Source: a virus
Lineage: Duplodnaviria; Caudoviricetes
Strand: one strand, 5' to 3'
Length of the DNA stretch: 30,700 nt
IMG/VR virus record: IMGVR_UViG_3300025276_003640
Span: 1-30,700 of that record
The translations under genes and the position numbers were made by a program. The notes beneath the pieces were generated by a model, which had not been told where the DNA came from, did not search any database, and saw only the letters and a program-made list of their open reading frames with translations. This document shows positions 2-23,047 of this stretch, one piece after another (within the stretch, counting starts at the first letter, position 1; each line of letters opens with the position of its first letter).

Positions 2-334
2 GAGCTACTAGCTGAGGCAAAGACACTTGGTGGGAAACTAATTGTAGGCATAAATTCAGATGAAAGTGTTAGACGGTTTAAAGGTCCTAAGCGTCCTATC
101 AATAATGTAAACAACCGTAAAAGGCAATTAGAATTATTACCGTGGGTAGACGAAGTAATTGTATTCGACGAGGACACTCCGTACAGATTAATTAAAGAAA
201 TAACTCCGCACGTTATTGTAAAGGGCGGCGATTACACAGTAGAACAAGTTGTAGGTCATGATTTGGCTGATGTGCATCTTGTGCCTACAGTTGAAGGTTA
301 TTCAACAACACAGATTATAGAGGACATTAAATGA
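2..334 (+). CDS. rfaE: D-glycero-beta-D-manno-heptose 1-phosphate adenylyltransferase (RfaE domain II/HldC; may be the C-terminus of bifunctional HldE), 5' truncated
   Basis: Not in the ORF track. Manual translation of frame 2: ELLAEAKTLGGKLIVGINSDESVRRFKGPKRPINN...WVDEVIVFDEDTPYRLIKEITPHVIVKGGDY...VEGYSTTQII; TGA at 332-334 overlaps the hldD ATG (ATGA). Confidence 0.92.
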   Translation, partial: ELLAEAKTLGGKLIVGINSDESVRRFKGPKRPINNVNNRKRQLELLPWVDEVIVFDEDTPYRLIKEITPHVIVKGGDYTVEQVVGHDLADVHLVPTVEGYSTTQIIEDIK

Positions 335-1149
335 AAATATTAGTTACAGGATACAAAGGATTTATTGGACAAAATATGTGTGCTTATTTGCAAAGCCAAG
401 GGCACGAAGTTGAAGGTTGGGAGTTTATGGAAAATGCTGTTCCTGATCCTAGTGCATACGATTGGGTAATACATCTTGGTGCTATTAGTAGTACAACTTA
501 TACTGATGTAGATAATATTATGAATCAAAACTTTGAGTATAGTATGCGACTGTTACAAGTATGTGATAATTATGGAGTAAACTTTCAATATGCTTCTAGT
601 GCCAGCGTATACGGACCTACTACACATTTTACAGAAGACGGTCCGTTACAACCGCAAAGCCCATATGCGTGGAGTAAATATTTGTTTGATAGATTTGTAA
701 AACAGCATAAAGATGAGTTTAATATTCTTGTACAAGGATTTAGGTACTTTAATGTATACGGTCCTCATGAAGGAGACAAAGGCGATCAAGCATCTCCGTA
801 TACAAAGTTTAGACTACAGGCACAACAAGACAATGTTATTAATGTATTTGAAGATAGCGAACATTACAAACGTGACTTTGTATGTGTTGGAGATATTTGT
901 AAAGTACACGAAAAAATGCTAAGTGTTGATGCTAGCGACATTTATAATGTTGGCACCGGCGTACCAGAAAGCTTTGATACTGTAGCACAAACTATTGCTA
1001 AAAAATATAATGCAGCAATTAATTATATTCCTATTCCGGATAATGTTAAAAATCAATACCAAGAATACACTTGTGCTAACTTAGACAAATTAAATAGTGT
1101 TATAGATATGGAATGGATTAGTATAAAGGATTATATAAATGATAATTGA
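331..1149 (+). CDS. hldD: ADP-L-glycero-D-manno-heptose 6-epimerase (extended SDR)
   Basis: TGYKGFIG Rossmann motif, HLGAISSTT, YASSASVYG, YAWSK (YxxxK), RYFNVYGPHEGDKGDQAS, RDFV; lies between rfaE-II and gmhB. Confidence 0.9.
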   Translation: MKILVTGYKGFIGQNMCAYLQSQGHEVEGWEFMENAVPDPSAYDWVIHLGAISSTTYTDVDNIMNQNFEYSMRLLQVCDNYGVNFQYASSASVYGPTTHFTEDGPLQPQSPYAWSKYLFDRFVKQHKDEFNILVQGFRYFNVYGPHEGDKGDQASPYTKFRLQAQQDNVINVFEDSEHYKRDFVCVGDICKVHEKMLSVDASDIYNVGTGVPESFDTVAQTIAKKYNAAINYIPIPDNVKNQYQEYTCANLDKLNSVIDMEWISIKDYINDN

Positions 1150-1807
1150 GGACGATAATCATAGTTTTATTCATCCGTGGGGTGAGTTTATCTATAAAAG
1201 TTTATTGTCTAATAACGAATTAGTCTTCTTCCAAGAACAAGCAGAGTACGCAAGAGATGGGAAATCAGAAGTAGGCAAGGCATTAGCGGGAAATATCAAA
1301 GAACAATATCTTGCAAGTATACAAACATATGAAAATCAAAAAGAAGTATTTAATATACTTGATCCGCATATTAAAAAATATATAAGCTATCTTAGTGACC
1401 GTGCTTTATCTTTACAAGAATCTTTTCTTCGGCCAGACTATAAGGATAATGCAATTGATGCAGAAAATTTAAGGTATAATCTTGGACAAGGACCTTGGTT
1501 TAACTTTATGAAGAAAAACGAATTTAATCCGTTACATTGTCATACTGGTAATATTAGTGGGATACTTATGATAAAAGTTCCTAAAGAAATTGAAGGAGAA
1601 CCTGAAACATTTATATTAGAATCTAATCTAAGATGTCCAGGTCAATTAGAATGGATAGGAAGCGGGACGAGGACATATAAAGTAAATCCTAAAGAAGGAG
1701 AAATTTATTTATTTGATTCTAGCCTGCGCCATCAGGTTTATCCGTTTCAGAGTGATGTTGAGAGAATAACGTCAAGTTTTAATGTACACCAAGAGGAAAT
1801 AAAATGA
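1139..1807 (+). CDS. putative 2OG-Fe(II) oxygenase (phage type)
   Basis: WFNFMKKNEFNPLHCH...ISGILMIKVP and EGEIYLFDSSLRHQVYPF...ERITSSFN: HxH...H metal ligands and distal Arg. Confidence 0.8.
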   Translation: MIIEDDNHSFIHPWGEFIYKSLLSNNELVFFQEQAEYARDGKSEVGKALAGNIKEQYLASIQTYENQKEVFNILDPHIKKYISYLSDRALSLQESFLRPDYKDNAIDAENLRYNLGQGPWFNFMKKNEFNPLHCHTGNISGILMIKVPKEIEGEPETFILESNLRCPGQLEWIGSGTRTYKVNPKEGEIYLFDSSLRHQVYPFQSDVERITSSFNVHQEEIK

Positions 1808-2193
1808 GCAGATTGAATGGACACGTTAAAAAGGGTTGGGGCTACGAACTTATTTGGGCCACTAACGACAAGTACTGTGGTAAAATTATGGTATTCGAAA
1901 AAGTGGGTGCAAAATTTAGCATGCACTTCCATAACGAAAAAGACGAAACTTGGTTTGTAAATAGCGGACGATTTAAAGTACGCTGGATCGATACAAAGGA
2001 TGCAACTATCTTTGAAAAAGAATTAAAAGAAGGCGACACTTGGCATAATCCTCCATTACAGCCGCATCAACTAGAAGCACTTGATCCTATGAGTTCTGTT
2101 ACAGAAGTTAGTACTCCTGATTCTGTAGAAGATAATTTTAGGCTTATACCAGGTGATAGTCAGTCATTAGAACCGGAACAGTTAGATGATTGA
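1804..2193 (+). CDS. cupin-fold protein (mannose-6-phosphate isomerase/sugar isomerase-like)
   Basis: KKGWGYELIW, FSMHFHNEKDETW (cupin motif 1), PPLQPHQL (motif 2), EVSTPD; ATGA overlap with the upstream gene. Confidence 0.8.
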   Translation: MSRLNGHVKKGWGYELIWATNDKYCGKIMVFEKVGAKFSMHFHNEKDETWFVNSGRFKVRWIDTKDATIFEKELKEGDTWHNPPLQPHQLEALDPMSSVTEVSTPDSVEDNFRLIPGDSQSLEPEQLDD

Positions 2194-2800
2194 AATTGAA
2201 TGGAGTGATGAATTTGATAGAGGACCAGATTGGATTGCTCCAAAGTGCGTTGTTGGGTTAGATCGAGATGGTGTAATCAACGAGGATATTGGAACATACT
2301 GCTATAGATCAAAAGATTTCAAACCAATTGACGGTAGTATAAAAGCTATTGCAAAGTTACGCAAATTAGGTCACAAAGTTGTAATTATTACAAATCAAGG
2401 CGGAATTGAAAAGGGAATATTTACTCAAGATGATGTTGAAAACTTACATAAACATATGTTTGAATTATTTGGTGAAGAAGGATGTCAAAGTATAGATGGA
2501 TTATACTATAGCGAAAGTAGTAGAAAACAAGACATGTATGCAAAGCCTAATGTTGGTATGTTTAAGCGTTGCGAAAAAGAAGTGCCACATGTAAAATTTT
2601 CTCAAGGATATTATGTTGGGGACAAAATATCTGATCTTAAAGCTGCAATGAAGATTGGTGCAAAGCCAATACTAGTACGTACAGGATACGGAAAAGAAAC
2701 TGAAGAATTAATTAACAAAAGATTTACATATCGATCAATAAAAAAGCGTACCAAAGTATTTGATACGCTTTTAGATTTTGTTAATTACCTCGAACGTTAA
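2186..2800 (+). CDS. gmhB: D-glycero-D-manno-heptose 1,7-bisphosphate phosphatase (HAD-IIIA)
   Basis: LDRDGVIN, IITNQGGI, KPNVGM, VGDKISDLKAA, LVRTGYG; heptose-operon context. Confidence 0.85.
   Translation: MIEIEWSDEFDRGPDWIAPKCVVGLDRDGVINEDIGTYCYRSKDFKPIDGSIKAIAKLRKLGHKVVIITNQGGIEKGIFTQDDVENLHKHMFELFGEEGCQSIDGLYYSESSRKQDMYAKPNVGMFKRCEKEVPHVKFSQGYYVGDKISDLKAAMKIGAKPILVRTGYGKETEELINKRFTYRSIKKRTKVFDTLLDFVNYLER
2737..2772 (-). terminator. intrinsic terminator for the minus-strand structural operon, inside the gmhB coding sequence
   Basis: Minus-strand RNA GCGUAUCAAA-UAC-UUUGGUACGC-UUUUUUAUU: 10-bp stem (one U.G) plus U6, about 25 nt after the stop of the 2120-aa gene. Confidence 0.75.
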
Positions 2801-5800
2801 GCTTGCGCTTCACCCCACTTAATAATAATATTTGAATTAATATCCGAACCTGTTACCTTATACACGTTAATAGCTAATACGTCTGGACCATTTGGGAATG
2901 TTCCTCTACCACCTAGTGGCGTATTAGTAAGTTCTTTCAACGACGATAAGTCTAGTGTAGATCTTTCTCCAGGCACAGCAATGAATGAGAACACAGTTTC
3001 TCCTGGTTGGGCATGCGGTGGTTGTACAAATGAAGCTGTAACTGTACCTGACCCAAGTGCTAGTGTACCCGTGTATGAATTATTAAAGTCTACTTGATAA
3101 AATGTACTACCGCCCCAAGTCTCTGCTCCAACAAAGCTAACATATGTGTTAGCTGGGAAAGATCCGCCGCTCATAGCAGTAATTTCAGTACCAACAATTA
3201 CTCCGGCAGTATCAACACTGCTTGTTGTAAAGTAACCATAGTTTTTGTTTACAAGTGCAGCATTATATGCAATAGTAAAGTGATTTGATGAACCCGCAGA
3301 AATGTTTCCCGTAGTTCTCTTATTAAGTCTAAAGTATCCGTAGCTGTCATACTGACTAATGTAACCATTCGAAATAGTTGTGTTAGATCGAATGTTAGTT
3401 CCTGTAATAGGTTTACCTAAAACAAAATCCATATTACTTGATCCAAATGTAGCTCTATAATCAGCAGCATCTATGTATATGTAACTATTGTTATTATAAC
3501 TTTGATATTCACCACTATTAAGTACTGCTGTAATAGCACTAACTGATGTTAAGTTAGCTGTAGTAGCTGATTCACCGTCTGTCCATGTAACACCACCACC
3601 TGATGCAATTTGAGCAAAGCTAGGCTGTCCGCCTTGTGCAACTCCGCTTAGTCCTGCCCAGTTAACATCACTTGGGTTAAGTGGATAGTTTTGCGGGTTA
3701 AGAACACCTTCAATAACAATTCCACCTGCGCCCGAATCTGATGTAACCTCAAGACCCATAAGCAACAACTGTGCTCTGTTTAGTAGTTCCCTTTCACCTA
3801 AGTCTCCAACAATAGCGTTAGATACACTCGGTGCTAGTCGCATCATAAATGCTGTTTGTTTTGTAGTACTAACAGCAACGCTTGTTTCAGCGTAACTAAA
3901 GATATATCCTCGATCTTCATCAAAGCCACCGTCTGTTAGGAAAGCTGAACCCCAGTGACTAATTAACGGAGTAATTGTTTGTGAAATTATAATAACACCT
4001 GTTCTTGCTTGGTGTGTCACAGCCGCACCACCTGTATAACTACGTGATGCTCCTGCTTGGAATGTAATTAAACTGGCAGCTCTAGTAACACCAGTTAATG
4101 TATTAGTTTCCATATTATTGCCAGTATATGTCATAACTTCGTTATCAATGTACACTGTAGCATTATATGGAAAGAAACTACTATCAGTTAACTCAATAGT
4201 TGTTTGTGAAGTAGTCATTGCAGTTTTAAGCTTGCCTGGAGGGCCTTCGTTAGTTACTTCATAACGTACAGGTAAGTTACCCGAACGCATAAATGCTTCC
4301 GTGTTTACGTTTGAGTTACGCATTCTGTGTGCAAATACAAAGTTACCGCTCGAACCACGTACCATCCAATCAATAAATCCAGCACCATACCATGTATACT
4401 GAATACCAATCATCTGCATCTTAGCAATGTCCATATTGTAACCACTTGGACCCGTGCCGTCTAATTTGTCTAAGTTAAACTCACTTTGTTTAGCTTTTTT
4501 ATCGCTTACTAATGCAACTTTTGCACCTGTAATATTTATAACGCCACGCCAATCAGGTGTTACAGTCATTGCCGTATTACTAGACACATGGCTAACAACA
4601 TGCGTCATTCCTTTAATAATAACTCTGTCACCAGCTTTTAACTGATCTCTAAATCGTGTATTTGTTCCTACAATATTATTTTGATCAACGTTTAATGCAA
4701 TAGTACCTGCAATTTGTTTTGTACCTGTTCGCTGTACTGCACTCATTTGTGTGCCATCAAATTCCCAAAAGATACCGTTTTGATCATCAAAAATACCTGA
4801 ACGCACAGTAGCACCGTGCCAGCTTACAACACTCATCTGTGCTGAAAATCCTAGTACAGCGGATGTCGCTCCTAGTCTACGTTTTGATCTAACTTTAAAT
4901 TTTCTTTCGTCTACTACTGATACTACAGTATAGTCAAACTCTGTTCCTACAGATGTTTCTGTACCACTATTATAACCTTCAGTTTCAATACCAAGTAATC
5001 GAATTACTCCGCCAATTTGCACACCGTGGTCGTTATCATCAGTAGTAATTGTAATTAAACTATTAACTTCTAAACCGTCTGATACTACACTTTGTAAATC
5101 GTAACTTGGAGCAAATAGCGCACCAGTTGTGTACATAATACCTTTACCTGACTGATATCTAATATACTTTTTACTTTGACGTATTGCCTGTGCTCCATGC
5201 TGTGGTCCACCTGTTCCTAACATAACGCCGCCGTCATATGGCCTATGAACAAAGAAGCTATCTGGTCTTGGATACACAGTACCACTTAGAGGAGCGCCGG
5301 ACACATCAATTGCTCCCGTAGCCCTAGCTTGATATCTCAAACTAGTAATACTAGGTACTTCAGTTGCAAAGAAACTGCCACCAGCTAAGTCATGATTATT
5401 ACTACCGTCGTCACTAGTTGCAGATACAATAAATGTATCTCCTGGAACTAGTCCATGTGCTGCTGACCAATTAATATTAACAGTTGCTAGTGCAGCATAG
5501 CTTACAGTTTGGTTTATGTTAATTTGTGATGTTGTTGCCTCTGATATACTTACTGTTGAAATTATATCAATGTTTGTACCAGGGCTTGCAATAGTATAAG
5601 TTGCTTGTACTCCGCTAACTGCTCCGCTTGCTCCGTTAATTGCATTAACATATAGTTCTATATCGTTTAACGGACTCGCACTATTTAAAATAGTACCTGG
5701 TAATATAATTCTATCACCTATTTTATAATTTGCACCGCCTGCAAAAACTACAATATTATCGTATGATGTATAATTTCTTCTAACGCTAAATGTAGCACTT

Positions 5801-8800
5801 GTACCAATATTTGGTTGGGTTGTTCCTGTTACACTAAATGGGCCTGCTGGTTGAGCAGCCGTACCTGCAATAGTTACACCTGAAACATACCCTTGTACTA
5901 CTGATGATACACTAGTAATTGTTACTGTTGCATCGTTAGCTGGACTTGTACCATATAATGATGTACCCGGAATTACTAACTGTTGCCCTAAGGCATAATC
6001 TGCGCCGATAGTTTGTATACTAATATCAGTGTATTCGGTATCAGATAATTCAATAGTAAACACTGCACCACTACCTTGTCTAATGGTAGTGCCCATAGAG
6101 CCGGCTGTTCTTCCATTAAATGCTGTTCCTGCTGTGGTGTATGTTAAAATCGCGCCAGCTGCATCAACAGTAGCAATAGTATTTACTACATCATTTGCTG
6201 GTGTAGCTCCACCAAAATTGGAGGCGTTACCAGCTACTGTAACTGTTTCTCCTACTAGATAGTTAGTACCACCACCTCCACTTACAATATAACTTGCTCC
6301 AGTAATATTGACTGCAAAAGTTGCTCCTGTTCCACTTGTTGTATTTGATGTATAGACTACGTTTGTGTATGTATCATTTCTCTGAGGAGCGTTTGCAGAT
6401 GTAAACGTTATACTACTTATTGCGCCTGCTGCTCCAACTGTAAGAGCATCAAATGTTACTGCTGCTCCGCCACCGCCTCCTAGTACTGCATCAGCAATAG
6501 TAATAGTTGCTCCTGCTGCAACTCCTGTACCTGCAGCAACTATTGTAATATCACTTGCTAGAATCTGTCCCGATGTTGTTATACTATTAATGTCCATAGT
6601 AAATGGACTTGCGCCACCGCCGCCTAGTACTGCATCAGCAATAGTAATTGTGTCGCCTGATGTATGACCTGATCCAAACGTTTTTATAACTACAGAAGTA
6701 ATGGAGCCGCCGCCACCAACAGTAATATCAAATGTTCCAACAGTGCCTGAGCCTGCACTAGTACCTGTTACATTAGTGTATGTCCCTAAGGTTCTTGATG
6801 CATTAGCTGCACCATAGTTAGTCATACTGTCTGCGCCACCGGCCGGCCTCACTATAATAGTATATGTTGATCCGCCACCGCCAGTACTAGCTACGCCTGT
6901 ATATGTTCCCGGAGTTCGACTAGCAGGTACTTGTGTAATATTGTTTATACTTAATATATTTCCGCCGGCGCTAACACCTGACGCCGTTAAATATACATCA
7001 TTTTGTGGAGAAGCAGATCCTGTGGCTTGTAAAGCATTGCCTGCAATTTTAAGACTTTCGCCAATTACATATCCTGAACCAGCATTATTAATTGCTACTG
7101 CTGTAAATGTTCCGTTTAAGTATGTTACATTAAAATTAGCATCGACGCCTGCATTTCCATAAGCAGTATGACCTACAGCACCTAATGTTAAGTAACCATT
7201 AAAACAGTTACCTGTGATTGAAGCAGTATTAATGTCGCCGTCACTGTTTACTGAATTAACAAATATAGTAGCATCATGTATTGTTGCTTGGCCGCCTAAA
7301 TCTGTTCCTGCTATTTTAATCTGGTCGCCTTGTTCGTAATTAATACCAGCTGCTGATATACTGTTTAAAATATATCCGTTAGTTGAATCGCCTGAAGGAG
7401 AAATACTAAATGTTGCACCTGTGCCTGCAAAACTAACATTAGTACCTGCAAGGTTAGTGTATGTTACAATGTTACCAATCCTGTCAGCTGTAAACCCTTG
7501 ACTAAACTGTATACCTTTTCCGCTAGCTCCGGTGCCTACTGTTTGTACATAAGAAGCAACACCGTCTCCTCGATCAACTGCTTGATTTACAACTACACCT
7601 GCAATATCATCTACTTCAAGAGTATCACTGCCAGATAGCGTATTGGCTGTAGTTGCTAAGGTTAAAAATGTTCCTCCGCCTGCACTAGTATCAATAATAC
7701 TAGTTACCTGTGTACCTGATGTAATACTTCCGTGTACTAATGGAGATCCAATTTCTGGTGCAGATCCATCAAATGGTAAAATTGTACTCCCAGAAGCTAC
7801 TGATAATTGAGTTACAAAAGTGCCAGACGATCCTTGACTGTGGATAGTAAATGTCGGTACACCAATACTTGCTCCTGTATAAAATGCTGCTTTTCTTAAC
7901 TGGCAGTATGTAGTAACAAGTACTTGACCGCTTGAAGTACCAACTTTTGACTTTGCATAATATGTAAAGGTTTTATCACTTGGTGTAGTATTAATAACAA
8001 ACGAACCTTCAGCTCTTGATGCGCCTATAATACTGTTTTCTAATGCCTTAATTGTAATAGGTTGACCTGGTTCAAATCCATGTGCTACTACTGTTGTTAC
8101 TGTAATTAAACTAGCACCAATACCGCTTGTACCAGCACTAGCATCTGTTATAACATTTGACACGGCAGTGTTTGTTGCAGGTATTTCGTATACACTAGGA
8201 TATCCTCGTAATGTACCAATAGCCGACCACTTAGTAGGTTGCAATCCGTATTCAAAGTCAGCATCAAGCATACTTAACGGATTAGCAATACGCATACGCT
8301 CAATGGCATCTGTACCAAAGTCATACGGTCTAGTTGTTACAATACTTTTGCCATTTTCTGTTTGTTCTGCAAATATTTGTAAGTTATCTGTAGATTTATG
8401 ACTAGAAGTATCATAATTGAACCAGATTCTTGTTACTGCATCTGTAGTTTGCAAATACGTTTTAAAATCAGCATCATACCCTTTGGTAATAAATTTTGTC
8501 GTTGCACCTGTTTCAATGTTTGGAAAATTATATATAATTTCATTCTTAGTTGTATTAGTAACTAGTAGTAACTCTTCTAAACCATAACGTCCTTGAACTT
8601 TAAGATTGCCAACGCCACTTTCTACTTTGGTTGGAAGTTGGTCAATTCCTAGAGTAATAACATTAATAATAATAGCACTAAGTTCATTAATTCTTAGAAT
8701 TGCTCCTGCTTCTGCATTATCACCGCTAGTGTCTGTAGTTTGAATTACACCCGTTTGGTTTCCCGAATATGATGTATTAGTGAATAAATAATCTCTAATA

Positions 8801-9159
8801 ATATCTCGTATAATTGCATGCGTTTGTATTTCAGGCTGTCTATCGCCATCAACTTGTGCTACTGAACCTTCCCAATAATACCCTGCAATTTTAGAAGTTT
8901 CTTCATTGCCTCCGTATCTAATGTCCCATAAGTATGCATCAAGAACATATCCTACATCTCGTTCACACTTAGATTCATTATATGTATATCCTACAAACCC
9001 CGTTGCGTTAGCAGCTACTTGTGCTGCTATCCATGCCGTAGCTTCTTTTTGAATATAATATTTGTTGCCGTAAAGTAATGAGTATGCGTTAGGATATACA
9101 TATCCTGTGGCACCCATACCAGGCTTAAAGACGTAATTTTTTATTTGCTGTTTTGCCAT
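2797..9159 (-). CDS. giant virion structural / tail fibre-like protein (2120 aa)
   Basis: G/S/T-rich; N-terminal helical module (KCERDVGYVLDAYLWDIRYGGN), DADFEYGLQPTKW, several TxxxHG(F/L/V)xxG small beta domains, seven GxxYxxG(D/E)xIxIxGxxLGG-type repeats. Confidence 0.75.
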   Translation of the reverse strand: MAKQQIKNYVFKPGMGATGYVYPNAYSLLYGNKYYIQKEATAWIAAQVAANATGFVGYTYNESKCERDVGYVLDAYLWDIRYGGNEETSKIAGYYWEGSVAQVDGDRQPEIQTHAIIRDIIRDYLFTNTSYSGNQTGVIQTTDTSGDNAEAGAILRINELSAIIINVITLGIDQLPTKVESGVGNLKVQGRYGLEELLLVTNTTKNEIIYNFPNIETGATTKFITKGYDADFKTYLQTTDAVTRIWFNYDTSSHKSTDNLQIFAEQTENGKSIVTTRPYDFGTDAIERMRIANPLSMLDADFEYGLQPTKWSAIGTLRGYPSVYEIPATNTAVSNVITDASAGTSGIGASLITVTTVVAHGFEPGQPITIKALENSIIGASRAEGSFVINTTPSDKTFTYYAKSKVGTSSGQVLVTTYCQLRKAAFYTGASIGVPTFTIHSQGSSGTFVTQLSVASGSTILPFDGSAPEIGSPLVHGSITSGTQVTSIIDTSAGGGTFLTLATTANTLSGSDTLEVDDIAGVVVNQAVDRGDGVASYVQTVGTGASGKGIQFSQGFTADRIGNIVTYTNLAGTNVSFAGTGATFSISPSGDSTNGYILNSISAAGINYEQGDQIKIAGTDLGGQATIHDATIFVNSVNSDGDINTASITGNCFNGYLTLGAVGHTAYGNAGVDANFNVTYLNGTFTAVAINNAGSGYVIGESLKIAGNALQATGSASPQNDVYLTASGVSAGGNILSINNITQVPASRTPGTYTGVASTGGGGSTYTIIVRPAGGADSMTNYGAANASRTLGTYTNVTGTSAGSGTVGTFDITVGGGGSITSVVIKTFGSGHTSGDTITIADAVLGGGGASPFTMDINSITTSGQILASDITIVAAGTGVAAGATITIADAVLGGGGGAAVTFDALTVGAAGAISSITFTSANAPQRNDTYTNVVYTSNTTSGTGATFAVNITGASYIVSGGGGTNYLVGETVTVAGNASNFGGATPANDVVNTIATVDAAGAILTYTTAGTAFNGRTAGSMGTTIRQGSGAVFTIELSDTEYTDISIQTIGADYALGQQLVIPGTSLYGTSPANDATVTITSVSSVVQGYVSGVTIAGTAAQPAGPFSVTGTTQPNIGTSATFSVRRNYTSYDNIVVFAGGANYKIGDRIILPGTILNSASPLNDIELYVNAINGASGAVSGVQATYTIASPGTNIDIISTVSISEATTSQININQTVSYAALATVNINWSAAHGLVPGDTFIVSATSDDGSNNHDLAGGSFFATEVPSITSLRYQARATGAIDVSGAPLSGTVYPRPDSFFVHRPYDGGVMLGTGGPQHGAQAIRQSKKYIRYQSGKGIMYTTGALFAPSYDLQSVVSDGLEVNSLITITTDDNDHGVQIGGVIRLLGIETEGYNSGTETSVGTEFDYTVVSVVDERKFKVRSKRRLGATSAVLGFSAQMSVVSWHGATVRSGIFDDQNGIFWEFDGTQMSAVQRTGTKQIAGTIALNVDQNNIVGTNTRFRDQLKAGDRVIIKGMTHVVSHVSSNTAMTVTPDWRGVINITGAKVALVSDKKAKQSEFNLDKLDGTGPSGYNMDIAKMQMIGIQYTWYGAGFIDWMVRGSSGNFVFAHRMRNSNVNTEAFMRSGNLPVRYEVTNEGPPGKLKTAMTTSQTTIELTDSSFFPYNATVYIDNEVMTYTGNNMETNTLTGVTRAASLITFQAGASRSYTGGAAVTHQARTGVIIISQTITPLISHWGSAFLTDGGFDEDRGYIFSYAETSVAVSTTKQTAFMMRLAPSVSNAIVGDLGERELLNRAQLLLMGLEVTSDSGAGGIVIEGVLNPQNYPLNPSDVNWAGLSGVAQGGQPSFAQIASGGGVTWTDGESATTANLTSVSAITAVLNSGEYQSYNNNSYIYIDAADYRATFGSSNMDFVLGKPITGTNIRSNTTISNGYISQYDSYGYFRLNKRTTGNISAGSSNHFTIAYNAALVNKNYGYFTTSSVDTAGVIVGTEITAMSGGSFPANTYVSFVGAETWGGSTFYQVDFNNSYTGTLALGSGTVTASFVQPPHAQPGETVFSFIAVPGERSTLDLSSLKELTNTPLGGRGTFPNGPDVLAINVYKVTGSDINSNIIIKWGEAQA
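6479..6648. repeat. 26-bp exact direct repeat (6479-6504 and 6623-6648) within the 2120-aa gene
   Basis: cctagtactgcatcagcaatagtaat occurs twice, 144 bp apart; both encode ITIADAVLG. Confidence 0.9.
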
Positions 9160-9165
9160 ATTCTT

Positions 9166-10029
9166 TTAAATCCCAAATGCTATTGCAAACGCTGTTGCTG
9201 TTTCATCTACATATTTTTTGTTAGGAACAGCCGTTAATCCTGCTACTGCACCACTTATTGAAGCTGTTGTAAATGCAGCGGTTGCTGGCACTGTTGCTCC
9301 AATGGAAGTATTATCAATTGTACTGTTATTTATAGGTCCTACTAGTCGACCATTGACACTATCGACTAGTAATGTACTATTATCTGAATAAACTGATCCG
9401 TTTAAGTCACCGGTAACTCCACCTGTTGCTGTGATCATACTTGCTACACTCATTGTTCCGCCAAAGTTTGCATTAAGTCCTACACCTAATCCGCCTGTAA
9501 CTTTTAAAGCACCTGTTGTCGGGGTTGAGCTTTGTGTTCCGCTAGTTATACTTACTTCACTAAAACTTCTTGTTTGATCTAAAACTTGAATAGTTCCGAA
9601 TACATCACCAGCTGCATTACCATAATATAAAGTATTAGGAGCACTTAACGGAACTGTCCAAGTTAGTCTACCCGTACTTTTATTTTGGGCTGATGCTGCA
9701 ACAGTACTATCACTATGCCGTATGCCGGTATTATACAATACTGTAGGCGATAGTCCACTAAAAATATTAAAGGTTAAAGTAGTAAATCCTAAGTCAAATG
9801 TAGTAGTTGAATTTCTGTAAACAGTAATGCCAGGTTGATTACTTGCTTGTCCTGAAAATCTAAAATTGCCTGCGCTTTCAATAAAATCATAATCAGCAGC
9901 AATTCCTGCTTCGCCGCCTATTGATAATGTTAATGATGAAGCTGAAATGTTACCGTCGGCATCAACCGTAAAGTTCGGGCTTTTAAAGCCGTAGTCTGTT
10001 CTTAAAGGTGTGTTAACTGTCGTTGGCAT
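9166..10029 (-). CDS. phage structural / fibre-like protein (287 aa)
   Basis: WTVPLSAPNTLYY domain, TGALKVTGGLGV and GDLNGSVYSDNSTLLVD fibre-shaft motifs, NKKYVD; GGAG SD at 10036-10039. Confidence 0.65.
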   Translation of the reverse strand: MPTTVNTPLRTDYGFKSPNFTVDADGNISASSLTLSIGGEAGIAADYDFIESAGNFRFSGQASNQPGITVYRNSTTTFDLGFTTLTFNIFSGLSPTVLYNTGIRHSDSTVAASAQNKSTGRLTWTVPLSAPNTLYYGNAAGDVFGTIQVLDQTRSFSEVSITSGTQSSTPTTGALKVTGGLGVGLNANFGGTMSVASMITATGGVTGDLNGSVYSDNSTLLVDSVNGRLVGPINNSTIDNTSIGATVPATAAFTTASISGAVAGLTAVPNKKYVDETATAFAIAFGI

Positions 10030-10047
10030 TACTTACTCCATATAGTA

Positions 10048-10054
10048 TATTTAG
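10048..10054 (-). promoter_or_regulatory. T4-like late promoter box (CTAAATA variant)
   Basis: CTAAATA about 19 nt upstream of the ATG at 10029, followed by an SD. Confidence 0.55.
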
Positions 10055-10068
10055 CCTACTTAGGAATG

Positions 10069-10470
10069 TCAACTAGTTAACGGATTTTGATTTTGAAAGT
10101 AATTTGCAGTGTAAATAAATTTTGCACCTGTATATCCTGTTTTAGCTGTTATTAACAAATCTACATAAGATTGATTAACAGTGACTGACAAGTCTACAAG
10201 ATCATTACTTAAATTGCTTCTACCAACTACACTTAAATTAGCATAATCAACACCAACTGCAACAATACATTTTATAATTTCTTTGTTAGCATTATCATAA
10301 TCAATTGATATAGTAAACTCAGCTGTACTAAACTCTCCAGCATGCCATCTTTCTACTTGCGTGTTCGTGTATACTTGCTTCCAAGGGCCGTTGTGAGAAG
10401 ATGCGCCATTATTTCTTACTAGTAGCGTCTTTTTAATGCCTTCTCTAAAGTAATTTGTAATATTAAACAT
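10069..10470 (-). CDS. small hypothetical, probably structural, protein (133 aa)
   Basis: Clean ORF, AGGA SD, beta-rich sequence, late box upstream. Confidence 0.6.
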   Translation of the reverse strand: MFNITNYFREGIKKTLLVRNNGASSHNGPWKQVYTNTQVERWHAGEFSTAEFTISIDYDNANKEIIKCIVAVGVDYANLSVVGRSNLSNDLVDLSVTVNQSYVDLLITAKTGYTGAKFIYTANYFQNQNPLTS

Positions 10471-10488
10471 AATGATCCTTTGTCATTA

Positions 10489-10496
10489 TATTTATC
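10489..10496 (-). promoter_or_regulatory. T4-like late promoter box (GATAAATA)
   Basis: Overlaps the carbamoyltransferase stop; about 19 nt upstream of the ATG at 10470. Confidence 0.6.
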
Positions 10497-12315
10497 AGTT
10501 GTTCCATACTGTAATAAGTTTATTATGTTCAGGCAAATACAAATATTCTATTTCGCTAGTTGTTAAAGTACGTACAGCATCGTCGAGTGTTTCAACTAAT
10601 GGTTCACCGCCTAGATTAAAACTAGTATTAAAAATAATAGGAATACCTTTCTTTTCTTTAAAAGTTTTAATAATATCATAATAGTGCGGGTTTTGTTCTC
10701 TACTTACTGTTTGTATTCTACAAGTACCGTCAACATGAATAATTGCAGGGATTCTATCTTCAACACCTGGCAAGCAGTCAACAGCATACATCATTGTAGG
10801 TGAACTATCCATTCCTCGTAAGTCAAACCATTCATGAGCATCTTCTTCTAATATACTACCTGCAAATGGGCGAAAATATTCTCTATGTTTGATTTCATTT
10901 ACATAATCTTTACCATCTTTAAATGTTGGATCAAACATTAAGCTTCTATTACCTAATGCTCTAGGTCCATTTTCAGAACGCCCTTGAAAATTAGCAACAA
11001 TATTTTTACTAGTCATTAATTCAACTATGTCTTCATGTGTTGCATCTTTAATTTCAGCATCATATTTTTCTACAGTACTATAAATGTCTTGTTCTGAATA
11101 TTCATGCTTGGGTCCTAAAAATACATCATTAGCACGTTGATTAACTTTTGTATCTTTAGTAAGTTTATAATGTTGTATCATAGCTGCGCCCATCGCAGTT
11201 CCGGCATCATTTGAAATAGGCTCTACGTAAATTTCAATACCTTCATCTTTAAGTGCTTCGAGGTAATGATAGTTAGCAACACAGTTTAATCCGTAACCGC
11301 CGCTAATTACAACTTTTTTACATTTTGATTTAGCAACAGCGTGTCTAATAAGCTTTACTACTGCTTCTTGGGTTTCTTGCTGTACAGCATATGCTAAGTC
11401 TCTTCTATTTTTAAGGTACGTAACATTTTCTTGGTCAAATTCTAAGTCAGCATCTTTAAGTTCTTGATACAATGCATCATTAATTACAGCACCATTTGGA
11501 TATCTAGGAACAATTAGATTTCTATTTGTAGTTGGATACGGTAAGTCTACCTCATGGTCCATAATTGAAGGAATATTATTATTAGGGTTTCCATAAGGCG
11601 ATAACCCCATAGTTTTGCCTGCTTCGATAGCACTAAACCCACAATACTCTGTTACAGCTTCATACGCCTTTACAATTCCTGCGCGATCATGAACATATAC
11701 ATTATAAACAGTTCCTTTTGTTTCTTTCCATCCATTGCCGGCATCCCAATCCTCTATAACTCCTGCAGGAATAGCATTTCTAGCACCTAATGTTTTATGC
11801 AAAGTTTTAAAATTTGCCGGGTAGTTACATTTGTAAATACTTTCAGTTTCCCATATTGTCATATCTTCGTTACCGTGGCTCATCGGAAAAAATGTGCCGG
11901 CGCCATCAACGATAACAGCTACGGCTTCATCGAAGCCTGATCTATAAAAAGCCATTGCTGCATGCATTTTGTGATGAAACCATGCTACATCAATTACCTG
12001 ATCTTGCTTGCCGGGTGAAGGTAAATCTAATAAACCTATTTTCCTTGCTAATCCAGAATATACATCTTCTCCGGAATAATCTAACTTGCCAGCAGTCTCT
12101 AAATCAGTAGTATGAGCAATAACTAAGTAATCTAATTTGTCTGTATATTCTTTAATTTTAAGCATACTAGCTAGTGGTCCGCCATCATACTTTACCCGAG
12201 TTAATCGTTCTTCTTCAATACTAAATACGATTTCTCCGTCTTTAAGTAAACACACTCCTGCGTTGTGTCCTCTAGCAATTCCCGCAATCCAAACTGGTTT
12301 TTTCATATTAGTCAT
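10495..12315 (-). CDS. carbamoyltransferase, NodU/CmcH/TobZ family (true start may be the ATG at 12306)
   Basis: GHNAGVCL..EEERLTRVKY, HHKMHA, VDGAG, EAGKTMGLSPYG, SGGYGLNCVAN, NDAGTAMGAA, GRSENGPRALGNRS, KHREYFRPFA, HVDGTCRIQTV, NTSFNLGGEP. Confidence 0.95.
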   Translation of the reverse strand: MTNMKKPVWIAGIARGHNAGVCLLKDGEIVFSIEEERLTRVKYDGGPLASMLKIKEYTDKLDYLVIAHTTDLETAGKLDYSGEDVYSGLARKIGLLDLPSPGKQDQVIDVAWFHHKMHAAMAFYRSGFDEAVAVIVDGAGTFFPMSHGNEDMTIWETESIYKCNYPANFKTLHKTLGARNAIPAGVIEDWDAGNGWKETKGTVYNVYVHDRAGIVKAYEAVTEYCGFSAIEAGKTMGLSPYGNPNNNIPSIMDHEVDLPYPTTNRNLIVPRYPNGAVINDALYQELKDADLEFDQENVTYLKNRRDLAYAVQQETQEAVVKLIRHAVAKSKCKKVVISGGYGLNCVANYHYLEALKDEGIEIYVEPISNDAGTAMGAAMIQHYKLTKDTKVNQRANDVFLGPKHEYSEQDIYSTVEKYDAEIKDATHEDIVELMTSKNIVANFQGRSENGPRALGNRSLMFDPTFKDGKDYVNEIKHREYFRPFAGSILEEDAHEWFDLRGMDSSPTMMYAVDCLPGVEDRIPAIIHVDGTCRIQTVSREQNPHYYDIIKTFKEKKGIPIIFNTSFNLGGEPLVETLDDAVRTLTTSEIEYLYLPEHNKLITVWNN

Positions 12316-12318
12316 TTC

Positions 12319-13254
12319 CTAAGCTACGTTTTTTTTGATTTCTTCAATAATGTGTGTTTCAACTTGATCAGTCATTTGCATAACACCTTCATTAACCCTA
12401 TCAGAATATTCATCTACTGTAATTCTAATTGGACTATATACTCTAGAAATTTCTCCCATATCTAAAATATTAAAGAAGTCGCAATTAGGATAGCTTGTAT
12501 TAATTGGAAAAGTACTTCCTATAACCACTGTACTTGGTATGTCAAACGAATATGCCATATGTTGACCTACACTATCACACCCTAAAAAATGATCTGCTTT
12601 AGCAATAATAGAACACCATGTCCTTAAATCAATTCCTTTAGGAACTGCTACTGGCCTATCAACTCCGTGTTCTTTAAAATCAATTGCTAGTTCTCCCATA
12701 AAAAGAAGAGCGTAATCTTTGCTAAGACTGTTTACTATGTTAACTAAGTTTAATGGTTCTATACTTCTTCCACTATAATCAGTTAACATGCCAGATTCTT
12801 CTACTATGCCTCTACCAAATGGTTGAATAATTAATGCTTTATCAAGACCAGTTTTCTCTTTTACTTCTTTAATAACTTGGGAGCCTCGAACTAGCTCTCC
12901 TTTACTAAGTCTAATATTAGGCTTAGGTAATTCTCTAACGCCTTTATTATTAATAGCAATATCATATGCTTGAGCCAAGCTACACTGTTGGTTATAATAT
13001 TCCCAAACTCTGTAAGGCTCCGGGCTTAATATATCCATATCTTTTAATTTATCTTCAAATAAGTTCTTATGCCAATGATCATATGCCTTAGCATGTAATA
13101 CCGGATGTCCTTTAAAAAAGTCAGTGCCGCCTTCGCATATTACTAGAAAATCATTATCTGGATTTTCTTCATGAAATTTTTCTAGTGCAGGGATTGAACA
13201 TACAACACGCCCTGCGCCACCGTTAATAAAAATTGCTGAATTTCTTTTTGACAT
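12319..13254 (-). CDS. GT-B glycosyltransferase, GT9 (heptosyltransferase)-like
   Basis: N-terminal GGAGRVVCSIPAL resembles WaaC/WaaF GDxxxxxPAL; C-terminal IIAKADHFLGCDSVGQHMAYSFDIPSTVVIG resembles the GT9 D(S/T)GxxHxAxA...P motif. Confidence 0.7.
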   Translation of the reverse strand: MSKRNSAIFINGGAGRVVCSIPALEKFHEENPDNDFLVICEGGTDFFKGHPVLHAKAYDHWHKNLFEDKLKDMDILSPEPYRVWEYYNQQCSLAQAYDIAINNKGVRELPKPNIRLSKGELVRGSQVIKEVKEKTGLDKALIIQPFGRGIVEESGMLTDYSGRSIEPLNLVNIVNSLSKDYALLFMGELAIDFKEHGVDRPVAVPKGIDLRTWCSIIAKADHFLGCDSVGQHMAYSFDIPSTVVIGSTFPINTSYPNCDFFNILDMGEISRVYSPIRITVDEYSDRVNEGVMQMTDQVETHIIEEIKKNVA

Positions 13255-13309
13255 ATTTTTCTTAAATCCTATCGTTAATAAACAGAGCAGTTAATTGCTT
13301 CTATATGAA

Positions 13310-13317
13310 TATTTATA
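13310..13317 (-). promoter_or_regulatory. perfect T4 late promoter consensus TATAAATA upstream of the glycosyltransferase-carbamoyltransferase pair
   Basis: + strand tatttata at 13310-13317; intergenic, just downstream of a terminator hairpin. Confidence 0.7.
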
Positions 13318-13388: not shown

Positions 13389-14447
13389 TTAATCGTCTAG
13401 GTCGGATACATCAATATAATTAGGAAGTGATGTATCATAACTATTTTTCATAATATCATCTTCAGTAATGTTCTGATCTACTAAATGATCTGGGTTAGAA
13501 TCTGATGCAAGTGCTTGCGGTGTATCTCGTACATTCTTAGGCCTCATTGGATTGTTAGGCCAGTTAGTTTTCCAAGGCTTAACTTGTACTACTTTAGTTA
13601 GTGTAACCGTTGCTCCTGAGCCAGCACCATTAGTTACAAAGAAACATCCAGTATATACTGCTGCTGTTGGATGATATAATGCTCTTTTATTTTCAACACT
13701 AAATCCTGTAATAGCACCGCTACCGTTAACTGTTGTTACAGTTAATTTAACTTCATTGGCAACTACTGTGCCATTTTTGTACTTAGGATCTTGTACTAAT
13801 AATATATCGTCTTGTGCATAACCTGAGCCACCTGCTGGAATTGTTGCAGTCCATGCAACTCCAACTGTTTCAGTAATGTTTCTCAAAGCTTGTCTATAGT
13901 TTACTATTAGTGCTCTTCGACTATCTGGCATATCAGCAGTGTTATTTACATCTGACATTGATAATAGTAAATCTCGTTTACCAAGTCTGTCTTCCCACGT
14001 AATAAATGGTTGCTTCCATGGATATGGTTTTACTAGTTTTTTGTCAATCGGATCATATTGTATTTCTTTCCATTCATACGCATGATCAGGTGTTGGAAAT
14101 TTATTTCTATAATAAGGAAGCATATTGCCTGGAACTTCTTCAGCTATTGTAGGAATTGCAAAGTGATCAATACCTTGAAACACAGCAGCAATTTCTGGAT
14201 ATGTAGCTACGTCTAATTCAATTAAAAATTGCCCAGTTCCTGTTGGCATTGGAATATCTCCATTCCAAAGTTCTTCTCCAGTGCCGCCACTTTCCCATTG
14301 GCTAAGTTTATTAGTTATATTGTCTACCCAAATATAAACTTTATCAGGTCCAATATATCGTAGTTTGCCTTTTTTATTTTTAGAGTCAGTCTGTGCATAC
14401 TGTTCGTCTGGAACAGGGTATTCAAAATCTATTGTTATATCAGTCAT
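13389..14447 (-). CDS. tail fibre assembly chaperone-like protein with an inserted fibre-type beta domain (352 aa)
   Basis: WEDRLGKRDLLLSMSD...YRQALRNI...WPNNP (Tfa/tail assembly chaperone signature); paralog of 16070-16747 (YxVPxxxYxQ, YxGPD). Confidence 0.7.
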   Translation of the reverse strand: MTDITIDFEYPVPDEQYAQTDSKNKKGKLRYIGPDKVYIWVDNITNKLSQWESGGTGEELWNGDIPMPTGTGQFLIELDVATYPEIAAVFQGIDHFAIPTIAEEVPGNMLPYYRNKFPTPDHAYEWKEIQYDPIDKKLVKPYPWKQPFITWEDRLGKRDLLLSMSDVNNTADMPDSRRALIVNYRQALRNITETVGVAWTATIPAGGSGYAQDDILLVQDPKYKNGTVVANEVKLTVTTVNGSGAITGFSVENKRALYHPTAAVYTGCFFVTNGAGSGATVTLTKVVQVKPWKTNWPNNPMRPKNVRDTPQALASDSNPDHLVDQNITEDDIMKNSYDTSLPNYIDVSDLDD

Positions 14448-14456
14448 TTTTATTCC

Positions 14457-15263
14457 TTACCAGTAAACTACATAAATTAGGCCGCCAGCACCTGGAGAGC
14501 CGCATCTGCAACCTCCATCTGCGCCCCAGGCTGATATTCCGCCGCCGCCTGGATGATGTGCTGCGCTTTGGCAAGCTTGACCGGCGCAAGAACTATAGTT
14601 AGAACATATTCCGCCCCAACAATCTTGGCAACAAGTACTTGTTCCTTGTGGCCGTTGTCCTGGAACTCCGTAGCTACCTCCACTGTACTGCCAACCCATG
14701 TCTACACACCATTGTGTTGAATGGTAAACTGTTGATGTACCTTGTTGCTGTGCAAGTCTTTGAAAATTGTTGCCTGCGGTAGCATAAGTATATCCGCCGC
14801 AGCAATAACATGTAGAACAGCATGTGTAGCAGCTCTGTGCTAAGTTACATCTCGCTGTTCTGGCGCTTGCCTGTCCACCATTTTGACACGCACACCAAGT
14901 ACCGTTCAAGCAAATTGAACTAAAACATCCATGGCATCCATTATGGGCCCCATTATTGCCGCTTCCAGTTGTTCCTGCTGTACACATGCAGATCTGTTCG
15001 CCTGCTGCTACGTCAACTATAAACTTTTGGTATCCGCCTCCGTTGCCGCCTGCGCCCATCATACAACAACATGAGTGTGAGCCGCCTGCGCCGCCACTCC
15101 ACATTTCCATAACAGCCTTTGTTTTGCCTGCTGGTACTGTCCATACGTAAGCGCATCCTCCGTTTTGAGCCACCCAGTATTGGTTGTTTTCTATTGTGAA
15201 CTCCGACGGCGTAATAGTGCTGCCTGACGCATATCCGTAAATTAAATTCTTTAGCTGTGTCAT
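14457..15263 (-). CDS. Cys/Gly-rich adhesin-like protein C (268 aa, 27 Cys by manual count)
   Basis: WTVPAG..EMWSGGAGG..CCC..GGNGGGY...PGGGG...GAGGLIYVVY phage glycine-rich domain. Confidence 0.7.
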   Translation of the reverse strand: MTQLKNLIYGYASGSTITPSEFTIENNQYWVAQNGGCAYVWTVPAGKTKAVMEMWSGGAGGSHSCCCMMGAGGNGGGYQKFIVDVAAGEQICMCTAGTTGSGNNGAHNGCHGCFSSICLNGTWCACQNGGQASARTARCNLAQSCYTCCSTCYCCGGYTYATAGNNFQRLAQQQGTSTVYHSTQWCVDMGWQYSGGSYGVPGQRPQGTSTCCQDCWGGICSNYSSCAGQACQSAAHHPGGGGISAWGADGGCRCGSPGAGGLIYVVYW

Positions 15264-15264
15264 A

Positions 15265-16065
15265 TTATGATCCTACCCAATATTCAATTAGTATTAGTCC
15301 GCCGGCTCCTGGAGCGCCACAGCCGCCGCTGCTTGTATGACTATCTCCTGTACCGCCACCGCCACCTGGAAAGTGTGCGTGACCCATAGAACAGCAACCT
15401 GCGCAAATTCCGGAGCAGCCATCCTTGCTCTTCCTGTACTGACCTCCTGTGTAAGGAGAATGTGGAGCATAGTTATGAGCACTATTCCAGCAGTTAGGCG
15501 ATCCATGTCCGGCGCCGCCTACGCCTGTGATTCCAAAGCTTCCACACCAGCCACCGTTGAAGGCTTCTGCGCTTTGATCGTTACAAAACTGTTGAGCACT
15601 ACAACCTTGATAACTACAGTTTGAACCCCAATAGCATTTTGAACAACCTCTTGAACCTCGCTGAGCGCACACTACGTTTGCAGATTCTGATTCGCCGTAT
15701 ATATAACTTGGGCATCCTGTACAACCTGTTACACTCGCAGCACAACCTGTTGAGCCAGCTGCACACATTCTATATACACGACCGGCTAATGTCGTACCTG
15801 GTGTAGGATGACTAACAACTTTTCTCGTATAACTGCCAGCACCGCCAGGCCAACCACCGTGGCAGCAACATGTGCCAGCACCGCCGCCACCGCCGCCCCA
15901 CATTTCAACTGCAAACCACGTGACTCCTGCTGGAACTGTCCATGCACAACAGCATCCGCCGTTGTTGGGTGAATCCTTGGATGTGTGATATATAGTGAGT
16001 CTGTTGACAGCAATTGTGCCGCCGCTTCCGCCGCCGTATTGTAACATTGTTTTTAGTGCTGACAT
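15265..16065 (-). CDS. Cys/Gly-rich adhesin-like protein B (266 aa, 23 Cys)
   Basis: NGGCCCAWTVPAGVTWFAVEMWGGGGGGAGTCCC...FPGGGG...GAGGLILIEY. Confidence 0.7.
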   Translation of the reverse strand: MSALKTMLQYGGGSGGTIAVNRLTIYHTSKDSPNNGGCCCAWTVPAGVTWFAVEMWGGGGGGAGTCCCHGGWPGGAGSYTRKVVSHPTPGTTLAGRVYRMCAAGSTGCAASVTGCTGCPSYIYGESESANVVCAQRGSRGCSKCYWGSNCSYQGCSAQQFCNDQSAEAFNGGWCGSFGITGVGGAGHGSPNCWNSAHNYAPHSPYTGGQYRKSKDGCSGICAGCCSMGHAHFPGGGGGTGDSHTSSGGCGAPGAGGLILIEYWVGS

Positions 16066-23014: not shown

Positions 23015-23038
23015 TTAGCACTCCATAAAACTTATATA

Positions 23039-23046
23039 TATTTATC
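23039..23046 (-). promoter_or_regulatory. T4-like late promoter box (GATAAATA)
   Basis: Intergenic, about 25 nt upstream of the ATG at 23014; GGAG SD between. Confidence 0.6.
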
Positions 23047-23047
23047 A

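Follow-up and report, generated by a model that had tools for sequence, protein, structure and literature searches.

A glycosyltransferase-carbamoyltransferase module beside cysteine-rich tail-fibre heads of T4-like phages, and its possible role in heptosylation of the virion

Introduction

The window analysed here comprises 30.7 kb of DNA (positions 1 to 30,700 of IMG/VR virus record IMGVR_UViG_3300025276_003640) and covers structural genes of a large aquatic phage of the T4-like kind. It raises the question what a glycosyltransferase (GT), a carbamoyltransferase and a set of ADP-heptose genes do among genes for the tail. An earlier note, made from the letters alone, had placed rfaE-II, hldD and gmhB beside the structural region and a GT9-like and a NodU/CmcH-family gene inside the fibre block. 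Both placements were confirmed, the former by matches to TIGR02199, TIGR02197 and NF006506, the latter by the coordinates and the carbamoyltransferase family matches, with the GT recognised by its fold. Relatives whose GT is 79-82% identical include a 335-kb contig; two complete relatives measure 353 and 365 kb.

The GT-carbamoyltransferase-heptose module is real, conserved (in P-SSM2, S-SSM7, S-CAM1, S-CAM3 and numerous uncultured phages) and functionally unexplained; its genes have stood as 'LPS (lipopolysaccharide) genes' in model cyanophages since 2005-2010. The explanation that we favour, somewhat above even and from sequence and modelled structure, is that the GT would heptosylate the fibre heads of the virion, after which the sugar would be O-carbamoylated. 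The virion target proposed in the earlier note stands as the most likely reading, with the linkage between the GT and Cys-rich tail proteins as the main new evidence; the rival targets, DNA and the LPS core, are weakened and not removed. The cultured phages P-SSM2, S-SSM7, S-CAM1 and SBP1 carry the GT, which makes the idea testable.

Linkage of the transferases to cysteine-rich fibre heads

The GT (12319..13254, minus strand) is followed by the carbamoyltransferase (10495..12315, minus strand). Directly upstream of the GT, on the same strand, are three Cys/Gly-rich fibre-head genes and two chaperones. Heads A (14457..15263; 10.1% Cys; PF21722), B (15265..16065; 8.6% Cys; PF21722, E 8e-10) and C (16766..17554; 7.6% Cys; phrog_4205, E 3e-22) are candidate acceptors, and the chaperone-like proteins are a tail-fibre assembly type (13389..14447; PF16778, E 1e-5; phrog_9740) and a second fibre chaperone (16070..16747; PF16778, E 3e-8).

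Linkage was assessed in 143 loci, three cultured phages included, which form 76 clusters at 90% GT identity; locus L106, itself intact, was omitted from the automated cluster counts. The carbamoyltransferase was found at most three genes downstream of the GT in 70 of 75 clusters; in the remaining five it stands immediately upstream, with a GT paralogue on either side. Of the dereplicated loci, 66 extend 4 kb to both sides, and every one of these contained the carbamoyltransferase and a Cys-rich gene. The tight pairing of GT and carbamoyltransferase inside the fibre block, as seen in the earlier note, is upheld. A reverse query with the heads gave 67 loci, 57 of which have 4 kb past the last head, and the GT was present in 57/57 (33 clusters; 56 calls by script and one by tblastn). 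As many of these loci are the same contigs, this query checks the linkage from the other side and adds no fresh sample. A third query used a structural gene nearby, a marker independent of both GT and heads. Of its 20 loci, 11 had heads, GT and carbamoyltransferase, five ended too soon, and four, all of one T4-like lineage, were without heads. The two loci of this headless lineage with 10 kb downstream have no GT; a 641-residue protein with 25% Gly and 0.5% Cys is present instead.

The GT9-fold transferase and the loss of its catalytic Asp

The GT protein did not match any Pfam or NCBIfam model (PF01075 included), and its PHROG family is of unknown function (phrog_8954). An AlphaFold model built from 109 sequences (predicted local distance difference test, pLDDT, 85) was most similar in the PDB to the GT9 structure 3tov (Z 21.9), WaaF (19.7), a plant NDH subunit (7wff, 18.0), WaaC (18.0) and TibC (17.9), with the next unrelated structure at Z 11.8. 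The GT9 structures align at a root mean square deviation of 3.8 over 250-278 residues, and Foldseek agrees with this fold (E 7.5e-12). Single-sequence and profile searches of the PDB gave no real match, and profile comparison with WaaC, WaaF and TibC aligned the C-lobe only (probabilities 37, 34 and 7). The SBP1 homologue of the GT does pass PF01075 (25.4 bits), and 22% of one Atlas cluster carry this domain.

In the alignment, Arg16 of the GT stands where WaaC and WaaF have Asp13 and TibC has Asp110. Asp110 is the catalytic base of TibC and required for activity (PMC4358343). Arg occupies this position in 76/76 cluster representatives and also in the distant Vibrio and Aeromonas members; as the profile comparison covered the C-lobe alone, Arg and Asp are equated on the basis of the fold and a short alignment at the N-terminus. 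The model begins at the catalytic domain, aligning to TibC residues 91-388, and has no counterpart of the N-terminal beta-barrel, of the thumb or, by this overall alignment, of the four-Cys iron finger of TibC. On the model, then, the GT is a heptosyltransferase-like scaffold that lacks a defining feature, the catalytic Asp, of both GT9 and the AAH/TibC heptosyltransferases (BAHT). Ser heptosylation of the AAH/TibC type, on which the earlier note had drawn, cannot simply be assumed, and the comparisons point to the Cys-rich heads instead.

By sequence the family looks viral only. Its Atlas clusters are 100% viral, and GTDB yielded 11 matches, eight full-length and all in phage-like contigs, the other three being short matches to ordinary GTs; no full-length cellular member was found in GTDB, and sampling is thinner for the most distant members. 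The family is abundant (3498 protein clusters among 3997 candidates, and an estimated 990 or so stored viral stretches). For cultured phages there are 55 records with the GT, namely 23 cyanophage or marine-virus, 31 Vibrio and one Aeromonas; the GT of the Aeromonas phage, HJ05, had no relatives in IMG/VR. Phage contigs with the GT module were also seen binned into bacterial and archaeal genome records (L211-L218), and such binning gives the GT a false cellular taxonomy.

The fold bears on a first alternative, in which carbamoyl-heptose would be added to the LPS or envelope glycan of the host, excluding rival phages or altering recognition by grazers. The best structural matches of the GT are LPS heptosyltransferases, Pseudomonas carbamoylates its LPS heptose (wapO, PMC8005017), and remodelling of this kind has already been proposed for P-SSM2 (PMC1079782). 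In many relatives, although not in the window, an SGNH-like gene (a motif-based call, with no Pfam match) separates GT and carbamoyltransferase; the hld genes of S-SM2 and P-TIM68 sit within glycan islands, and half of the relatives are without a late promoter box, all of which would suit a host target. The LPS of Synechococcus WH8102 and CC9311, however, contains neither Kdo (3-deoxy-D-manno-oct-2-ulosonic acid) nor heptose, the acceptors of WaaC/WaaF (PMC4515613). The GT has its catalytic Asp replaced, its eight strong GTDB matches lie in phage-like contigs with no full-length cellular form, and remodelling does not account for the association with Cys-rich tail proteins that three phage groups show. 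We consider host-surface remodelling unlikely.

Cysteine-rich tail proteins as candidate acceptors

Phages unrelated to the T4-like group have the GT too. In Aeromonas phage HJ05 it immediately follows a fibre with 23 Cys, and in the Vibrio N4-like phages SBP1 and D497 it immediately precedes a tail protein with 41 Cys. These loci have no carbamoyltransferase nearby and no hldD, and the Cys-rich tail protein still adjoins. In the tail protein of SBP1 (gp67, L004:12742-15519) the cysteines are spread across sites at which homologues of phages without the GT have small or polar residues. Four GT-less vibriophages were available for comparison; they lie outside the 55 GT records and represent three lineages, two of the phages being one species. 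At 53 aligned SBP1 cysteines they have Cys in 0/53 cases, with T, S, A, N, K, V, Q, I or D instead, and their homologous segments contain 0, 0, 4 and 11 Cys in all. For the HJ05 fibre no other phage homologue was found, and it therefore has no such control.

In the heads of the window type (66 sequences, the three paralogues pooled), 29% of the cysteines fall in near-invariant columns, of which there are seven, and 71% are variable. The cysteine count is odd in 42/66. An Atlas model of head B (pLDDT 0.56) matches Gly_rich_2 tail-fibre tips with TM scores of 0.65-0.80, and profile searches of the heads against the PDB gave no match. A thiol can do without a strong general base, and its thiolate form could be stabilised by an Arg. 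The pairing of the GT with Cys-rich tail proteins, the GT-less controls and the replacement of the base by Arg together make the heads the candidate acceptor and S-linkage a serious option; the cysteines may instead have disulfide or metal roles, or the GT may be catalytically dead. The 2120-residue virion structural protein (2797..9159, minus strand; 0.1% Cys; phrog_5838, E 3e-237) is a possible acceptor too, less likely than the heads.

The cysteines might be modified or protected otherwise, either by direct S-carbamoylation by the carbamoyltransferase, for which the chemistry of HypF/HypE is a model, or with the GT-fold protein as a non-catalytic, ADP-heptose-binding folding helper and the cysteines in disulfides or metal sites. 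The GT without a general base, the weak HypF matches of the carbamoyltransferase, the near-invariant Cys columns and the presence of the fold in 7wff, which we take to be a non-enzymatic use of it, all accord with this. Yet the Vibrio and Aeromonas loci pair the GT with a Cys-rich tail protein where no carbamoyltransferase is near, the epimerase that makes the L,D-donor is kept in all five complete T4-like genomes, and odd cysteine counts predominate among the heads. To this alternative we assign a slightly smaller chance than to host-surface remodelling.

The ADP-heptose donor pathway

The hld genes form a separate plus-strand operon that converges on the minus-strand fibre/GT block. It opens with rfaE domain II, the C-terminal nucleotidyltransferase half of a probable fused HldE whose 5' end is open (2..334; TIGR02199, E 3e-35), followed by an HldD-like ADP-heptose 6-epimerase (331..1149; TIGR02197, E 3e-67, under the equivalog cut-off), a 2-oxoglutarate (2OG)-Fe(II) oxygenase (1139..1807; PF13759, E 4e-16), a metal-binding cupin (1804..2193) and a GmhB-like heptose-1,7-bisphosphate phosphatase (2186..2800; NF006506, E 3e-40, under the equivalog cut-off). 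The oxygenase is a variable passenger that occurs in only part of the hld loci. The oxygenase, the cupin, the heads, the chaperones and the convergent arrangement of the operon were all absent from the earlier note.

HldD retains both catalytic bases (Y112 and K150) and the equivalents of S116, Y140, K144, K178, R209 and Y272 of the E. coli enzyme, which is also its best PDB match (1eq2, E 1e-48). In the two closest relatives the slot of the gene at the window edge holds a PfkB + CTP_transf_like fusion of 379-382 residues. The kinase, correctly described before as outside the window, is thus probably fused to the HldE half and cut off by the contig end. HldE is assigned as a kinase-adenylyltransferase by homology, its nucleotide specificity being predicted.

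Forty-eight GT-bearing records, mostly fragments and including five complete T4-like genomes, were searched for hld genes. The HldD model matched 31/48, with E below 1e-50 in 28/48, among them 5/5 of the complete genomes, at distances from the GT of about 2 kb up to about 250 kb. Together with the HldE transferase half, HldD and GmhB in the window, this upholds the proposal that the phage supplies its own ADP-heptose. No hldD was found in the GT-bearing Vibrio and Aeromonas phages (0/2), whose hosts make heptose themselves. The largest distance belongs to a 365-kb phage (G008; L183, L184), in which about 250 kb separate the hld operon from the GT and which has, in addition, a lone second hldD paralogue.

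A cupin as candidate substitute for GmhA

The idea that gmhA merely lies outside the window did not survive: the SIS fold of GmhA (SIS_2) was found in 0/48 GT records, the complete genomes included (positive control 9/14), and in 0/4 more (positive control 8/14). The cupin is a candidate for its place. Its residues H41, H43, K46, E48, H88 and E101 are invariant in 38 sequences, and 2y0o, a D-lyxose isomerase, aligns with it (E 6.7e-6) over the YCxK, HxH..KxE, His and ExS motifs, which marks the cupin as D-lyxose/mannose-isomerase-like. Against PF07385, 30/38 members match (best E 2e-4), beneath the curated cut-offs, and oxalate decarboxylases score equally high over the whole sequence. GmhA and the cupin have unrelated folds; what the cupin keeps is the lyxose-isomerase-like motifs.

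The cupin adjoins 28/29 distinct hldD loci, the exception being the lone second hldD, and a phosphatase adjoins 17/29. In Synechococcus phage Bellamy, the cupin (in gp215-217, L224:9552-11525) is flanked by genes for an HddA-like kinase and an HddC-like transferase; reductase-like and dehydratase genes come next and a carbamoyltransferase later. By its gene content this is probably a pathway to GDP-heptose that lacks GmhA. The ADP- and GDP-heptose pathways have the isomerase as their common first step, and the conversion of sedoheptulose-7-phosphate to manno-heptose-7-phosphate has the same stereochemistry as that of fructose to mannose. Since the cupin sits in both pathways where GmhA is missing and the isomerase step is shared, we judge it likely that the cupin replaces GmhA; supply of GmhA by the host is possible as well. 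In cellular genomes the cupin was found in 2/301 of one phylum (once in phage-like contigs, once beside a nucleotidyltransferase-like gene), which is uninformative on this point, and in plasmids it was not found.

Two PHROG labels were rejected as misleading, 'cysteine dioxygenase' for the cupin and 'phosphoheptose isomerase' for a short EcbF-type HAD phosphatase. The latter protein (L001:19027-19371 and orthologues in cyanophages) has about 110 residues and is a probable stand-in for GmhB. A cupin paralogue that lacks several of the invariant residues (L231:1411-1746) follows gp15-like and NUDIX genes at the place where relatives hold the hld operon and is possibly a remnant.

The carbamoyltransferase and its possible substrates

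The carbamoyltransferase is of the NodU/CmcH/TobZ O-carbamoylating type, with Kae1-like and YrdC-like domains that score above cut-off (PF02543, E 5e-29; PF16861, E 2e-57). Its motifs GH, HHxxH, IVDG, NDAG, GPRALGNRS and KHRE were located and are intact, with residue roles presumed from the family. The PDB matches were 7xb6, GdmN and TobZ.

These nearest solved enzymes act on natural products, and the cassette, which has its own promoter and inversions, is flanked by variable tailoring genes. One could thus imagine a heptose-containing metabolite for counter-defence or signalling, made with the nearby oxygenase, halogenase-like, methyltransferase and radical S-adenosylmethionine (SAM) genes. 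The tailoring genes vary, however, and the Cys-rich heads do not, and the minimal module of the Vibrio and Aeromonas phages is a GT plus a tail protein; a small-molecule product is improbable. Among the loci with such tailoring genes after the cassette (L058:13386-19523, L068, L050 and L002), 2OG oxygenases, tryptophan-halogenase-like and radical SAM proteins were seen, as well as an amidinotransferase-like protein (by eye), a methyltransferase and a carbon-nitrogen hydrolase.

Hypermodified DNA, with heptosylated or carbamoylated 5-hydroxymethylcytosine (5hmC), also has precedents: a GT-B enzyme heptosylates phage DNA (bioRxiv 2023.12.21.572611) and a phage 5hmC carbamoyltransferase exists (PMC8670742), and action of the carbamoyltransferase on 5hmC was one of the outcomes that the earlier note had named as refuting it. 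Neither the ThyA-fold hydroxymethylase (PF00303; positive control 10/14) nor a C5 methyltransferase (PF00145; positive control 9/14) was found in the five complete genomes (0/5 each), the genome of the window itself being a fragment; Tet_JBP was likewise absent (0/5, a search with no positive control). The DNA glycosyltransferases of these precedents resemble the T4 beta-glucosyltransferase, whereas the window GT resembles GT9 and is acidic (net charge -11; median -6 in 120 homologues). Carbamoyltransferases beside GTs occur, moreover, in unmodified contigs (PMC8670742). DNA as the substrate is very improbable.

Proposed reaction sequence and points against it

In the reading that we favour, heptosylation of the fibre heads, the cupin would isomerise sedoheptulose-7-phosphate in the place of GmhA, and HldE, GmhB and HldD, judged by close homology, would yield ADP-L-glycero-D-manno-heptose. 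The GT, with its predicted fold, would use this donor and place heptose on the glycine-rich heads before assembly, and the carbamoyltransferase would then add a carbamate, as on O7 of the Pseudomonas core heptose. The resulting coat of carbamoyl-heptose could alter binding to the host receptor or shield the fibre tips. Cys thiols are favoured as acceptor over Ser/Thr by a hair, the two being about level within this reading; in favour of Cys are the Arg in the place of the general base and the appearance of tail-protein cysteines where the GT is present. A bolder form, which we regard as tentative and rather doubtful as a whole, is that a virus-only, base-less GT9 clade S-heptosylates dozens of cysteines of receptor-binding proteins, with Cys placed over polar positions as handles for the sugar, and that those of T4-like phages have the sugar capped with an O-carbamoyl group and use a donor of the phage's own making, obtained through a cupin-fold sedoheptulose-7-phosphate isomerase.

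Several observations weigh against heptosylation of the heads. Most loci are kin, and the linkage thus represents few independent events; by inspection of lineages the independent groups are three with the GT, three GT-less vibriophage lineages and one GT-less T4-like lineage (10 kb checked). One aligned stretch of D497, which bears the GT, keeps 0/4 of the SBP1 cysteines, and the near-invariant cysteines of the heads may be structural. The donor-binding residues of TibC could not be mapped with confidence onto the GT, and the lost Asp could mean an inactive or sugar-binding protein. In S-SM2, P-TIM68 and Sf-CH8 hld genes and cupin occur without the GT, within glycan islands, and the donor therefore serves other ends too; GT and heads were found in 0/4 hld-bearing cyanophages, all absent from the 55 GT records, in a search with no positive control of its own. 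The Synechococcus LPS data concern hosts of cultured cyanophages, which may not be the host of the window phage, and late expression is not conserved across relatives of the GT.

If the bolder form is true, a virion would be S-glycosylated on a large scale and the heptose pathway would gain a new enzyme; both a cupin substitute for GmhA and protein-bound heptose in S-linkage would be new to enzymology. Heptose-pathway searches that demand GmhA would miss these phages if the cupin substitutes for it. If the fibre tips are coated, supposed host-modifying auxiliary genes would be virion chemistry able to set host range.

Relation to known systems

The cyanomyovirus 'LPS genes' T4-GC 302-308 (P-SSM2 gp307-313; S-SSM7 gp120-133; S-CAM1 and S-CAM3) include orthologues of the GT (45-56%) and of the carbamoyltransferase (47-60%), and these phages also have HldD, the cupin, a kinase and a nucleotidyltransferase, with the same Cys-rich heads ahead of the genes. 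The window differs in that HldE is probably fused, the phosphatase is of the GmhB type and the hld operon, 7.7 kb off, runs convergently. T4-GC 304, 305, 307 and 308 are given as LPS genes of unknown function, with the GT unnamed, in the part of PMC3037559 covered. Viral heptose enzymes described in a commentary on Tang 2024 (PMC11461863) come without the phosphatase and so differ from the set in the window.

With AAH/TibC the GT shares the GT-B catalytic fold (Z 17.9), a probable ADP-heptose donor and a gene position beside an adhesin, and the synteny fits an adhesin as acceptor. It differs in having no beta-barrel, Arg for Asp110, 311 instead of 406 residues and no autotransporter, and the system differs by probable carbamoylation and a possible Cys rather than Ser acceptor. 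With WaaC/WaaF and Pseudomonas WapO it has in common the fold (Z 18-22), the C-lobe D-S/T-G-x-x-H region and the combination of heptose and carbamoyl chemistry; unlike them it has an invariant Arg for Asp13 and looks viral only, the window protein falls below the PF01075 cut-off, and the hosts of cultured cyanophages lack the Kdo/heptose acceptor. Mycobacteriophages carry glycans on the C-termini of capsid and tail-tube proteins (Freeman 2023, cited in PMC12619734). Phage-encoded glycosylation of the virion is common to both, with fibre heads, heptose, a phage-made donor and carbamoylation as the putative features here. The tips of Pam3 (gp24/gp25) and S16 (gp38) also combine a glycine-rich head with a chaperone (PMC9608196), a likeness by class and not by direct structure comparison; the window heads differ by their three paralogues and 8-10% Cys, and the text of PMC9608196 covered is silent on cysteine. 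A literature search, the coverage of which excluded most subscription papers, found no paper whose title or abstract start describes the function of the module or a cupin substitute for GmhA, and the covered text of PMC12619734, PMC12801897 and PMC13326640 does not describe the module.

Promoters and timing

The perfect box of the earlier note, TATAAATA, is of the T4 late-promoter type and lies 55 nt ahead of the GT start (13317-13310, minus strand). The terminator that the earlier note placed there is present as a 12-bp hairpin (13371-13343, minus strand), the probable end of the fibre-head transcript, with a weak U-tail and unlisted by the terminator scan. Perfect copies of TATAAATA within 150 nt of the GT were found in 12/75 relatives against 0.5% of random windows. 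A late-type box precedes the GT in 36/75 clusters (background 2.8%), a sigma70-like site in 19 (3.8%) and neither in 24. The late box is frequent at the two small structural neighbours (41/48 and 43/54 homologues) and occurs at the carbamoyltransferase in 1/76, which indicates that the latter is co-transcribed. The cassette is inverted in 8/69 relatives. Late-only expression was rejected, with about half of the relatives lacking the box: late expression is plausible in the window phage and is not a family trait. No expression data for these genes were found in the literature search.

Inversion of the GT-SGNH-carbamoyltransferase cassette relative to the structural genes, at the same spot, was seen in L014, L089, L093, L099, L108, L112, L114, L136 and L106, and in some of these a ATGCTAAATT-type upstream motif replaces the late box. 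In L057, L035, L040, L046 and L051 a sigma70-like promoter upstream of the GT, close ahead of the ribosome-binding site, lies within an inverted repeat; the repeat could be an operator or a translational-control hairpin.

Further features

Two GT paralogues, both with the Arg motif, flank the carbamoyltransferase in L028, L061, L123, L130, L133, L147 and L148; they may build a disaccharide or serve different heads. Between the 2120-residue structural protein and the carbamoyltransferase the window has two small structural genes (9166..10470, minus strand; 287 and 133 residues; weak phrog_677 match). Upstream of the heads are two fibres of 1600 residues (18242-27883, minus strand), the N-terminal repeats of which score as CBM_5_12 (E 4e-33 and 4e-42).

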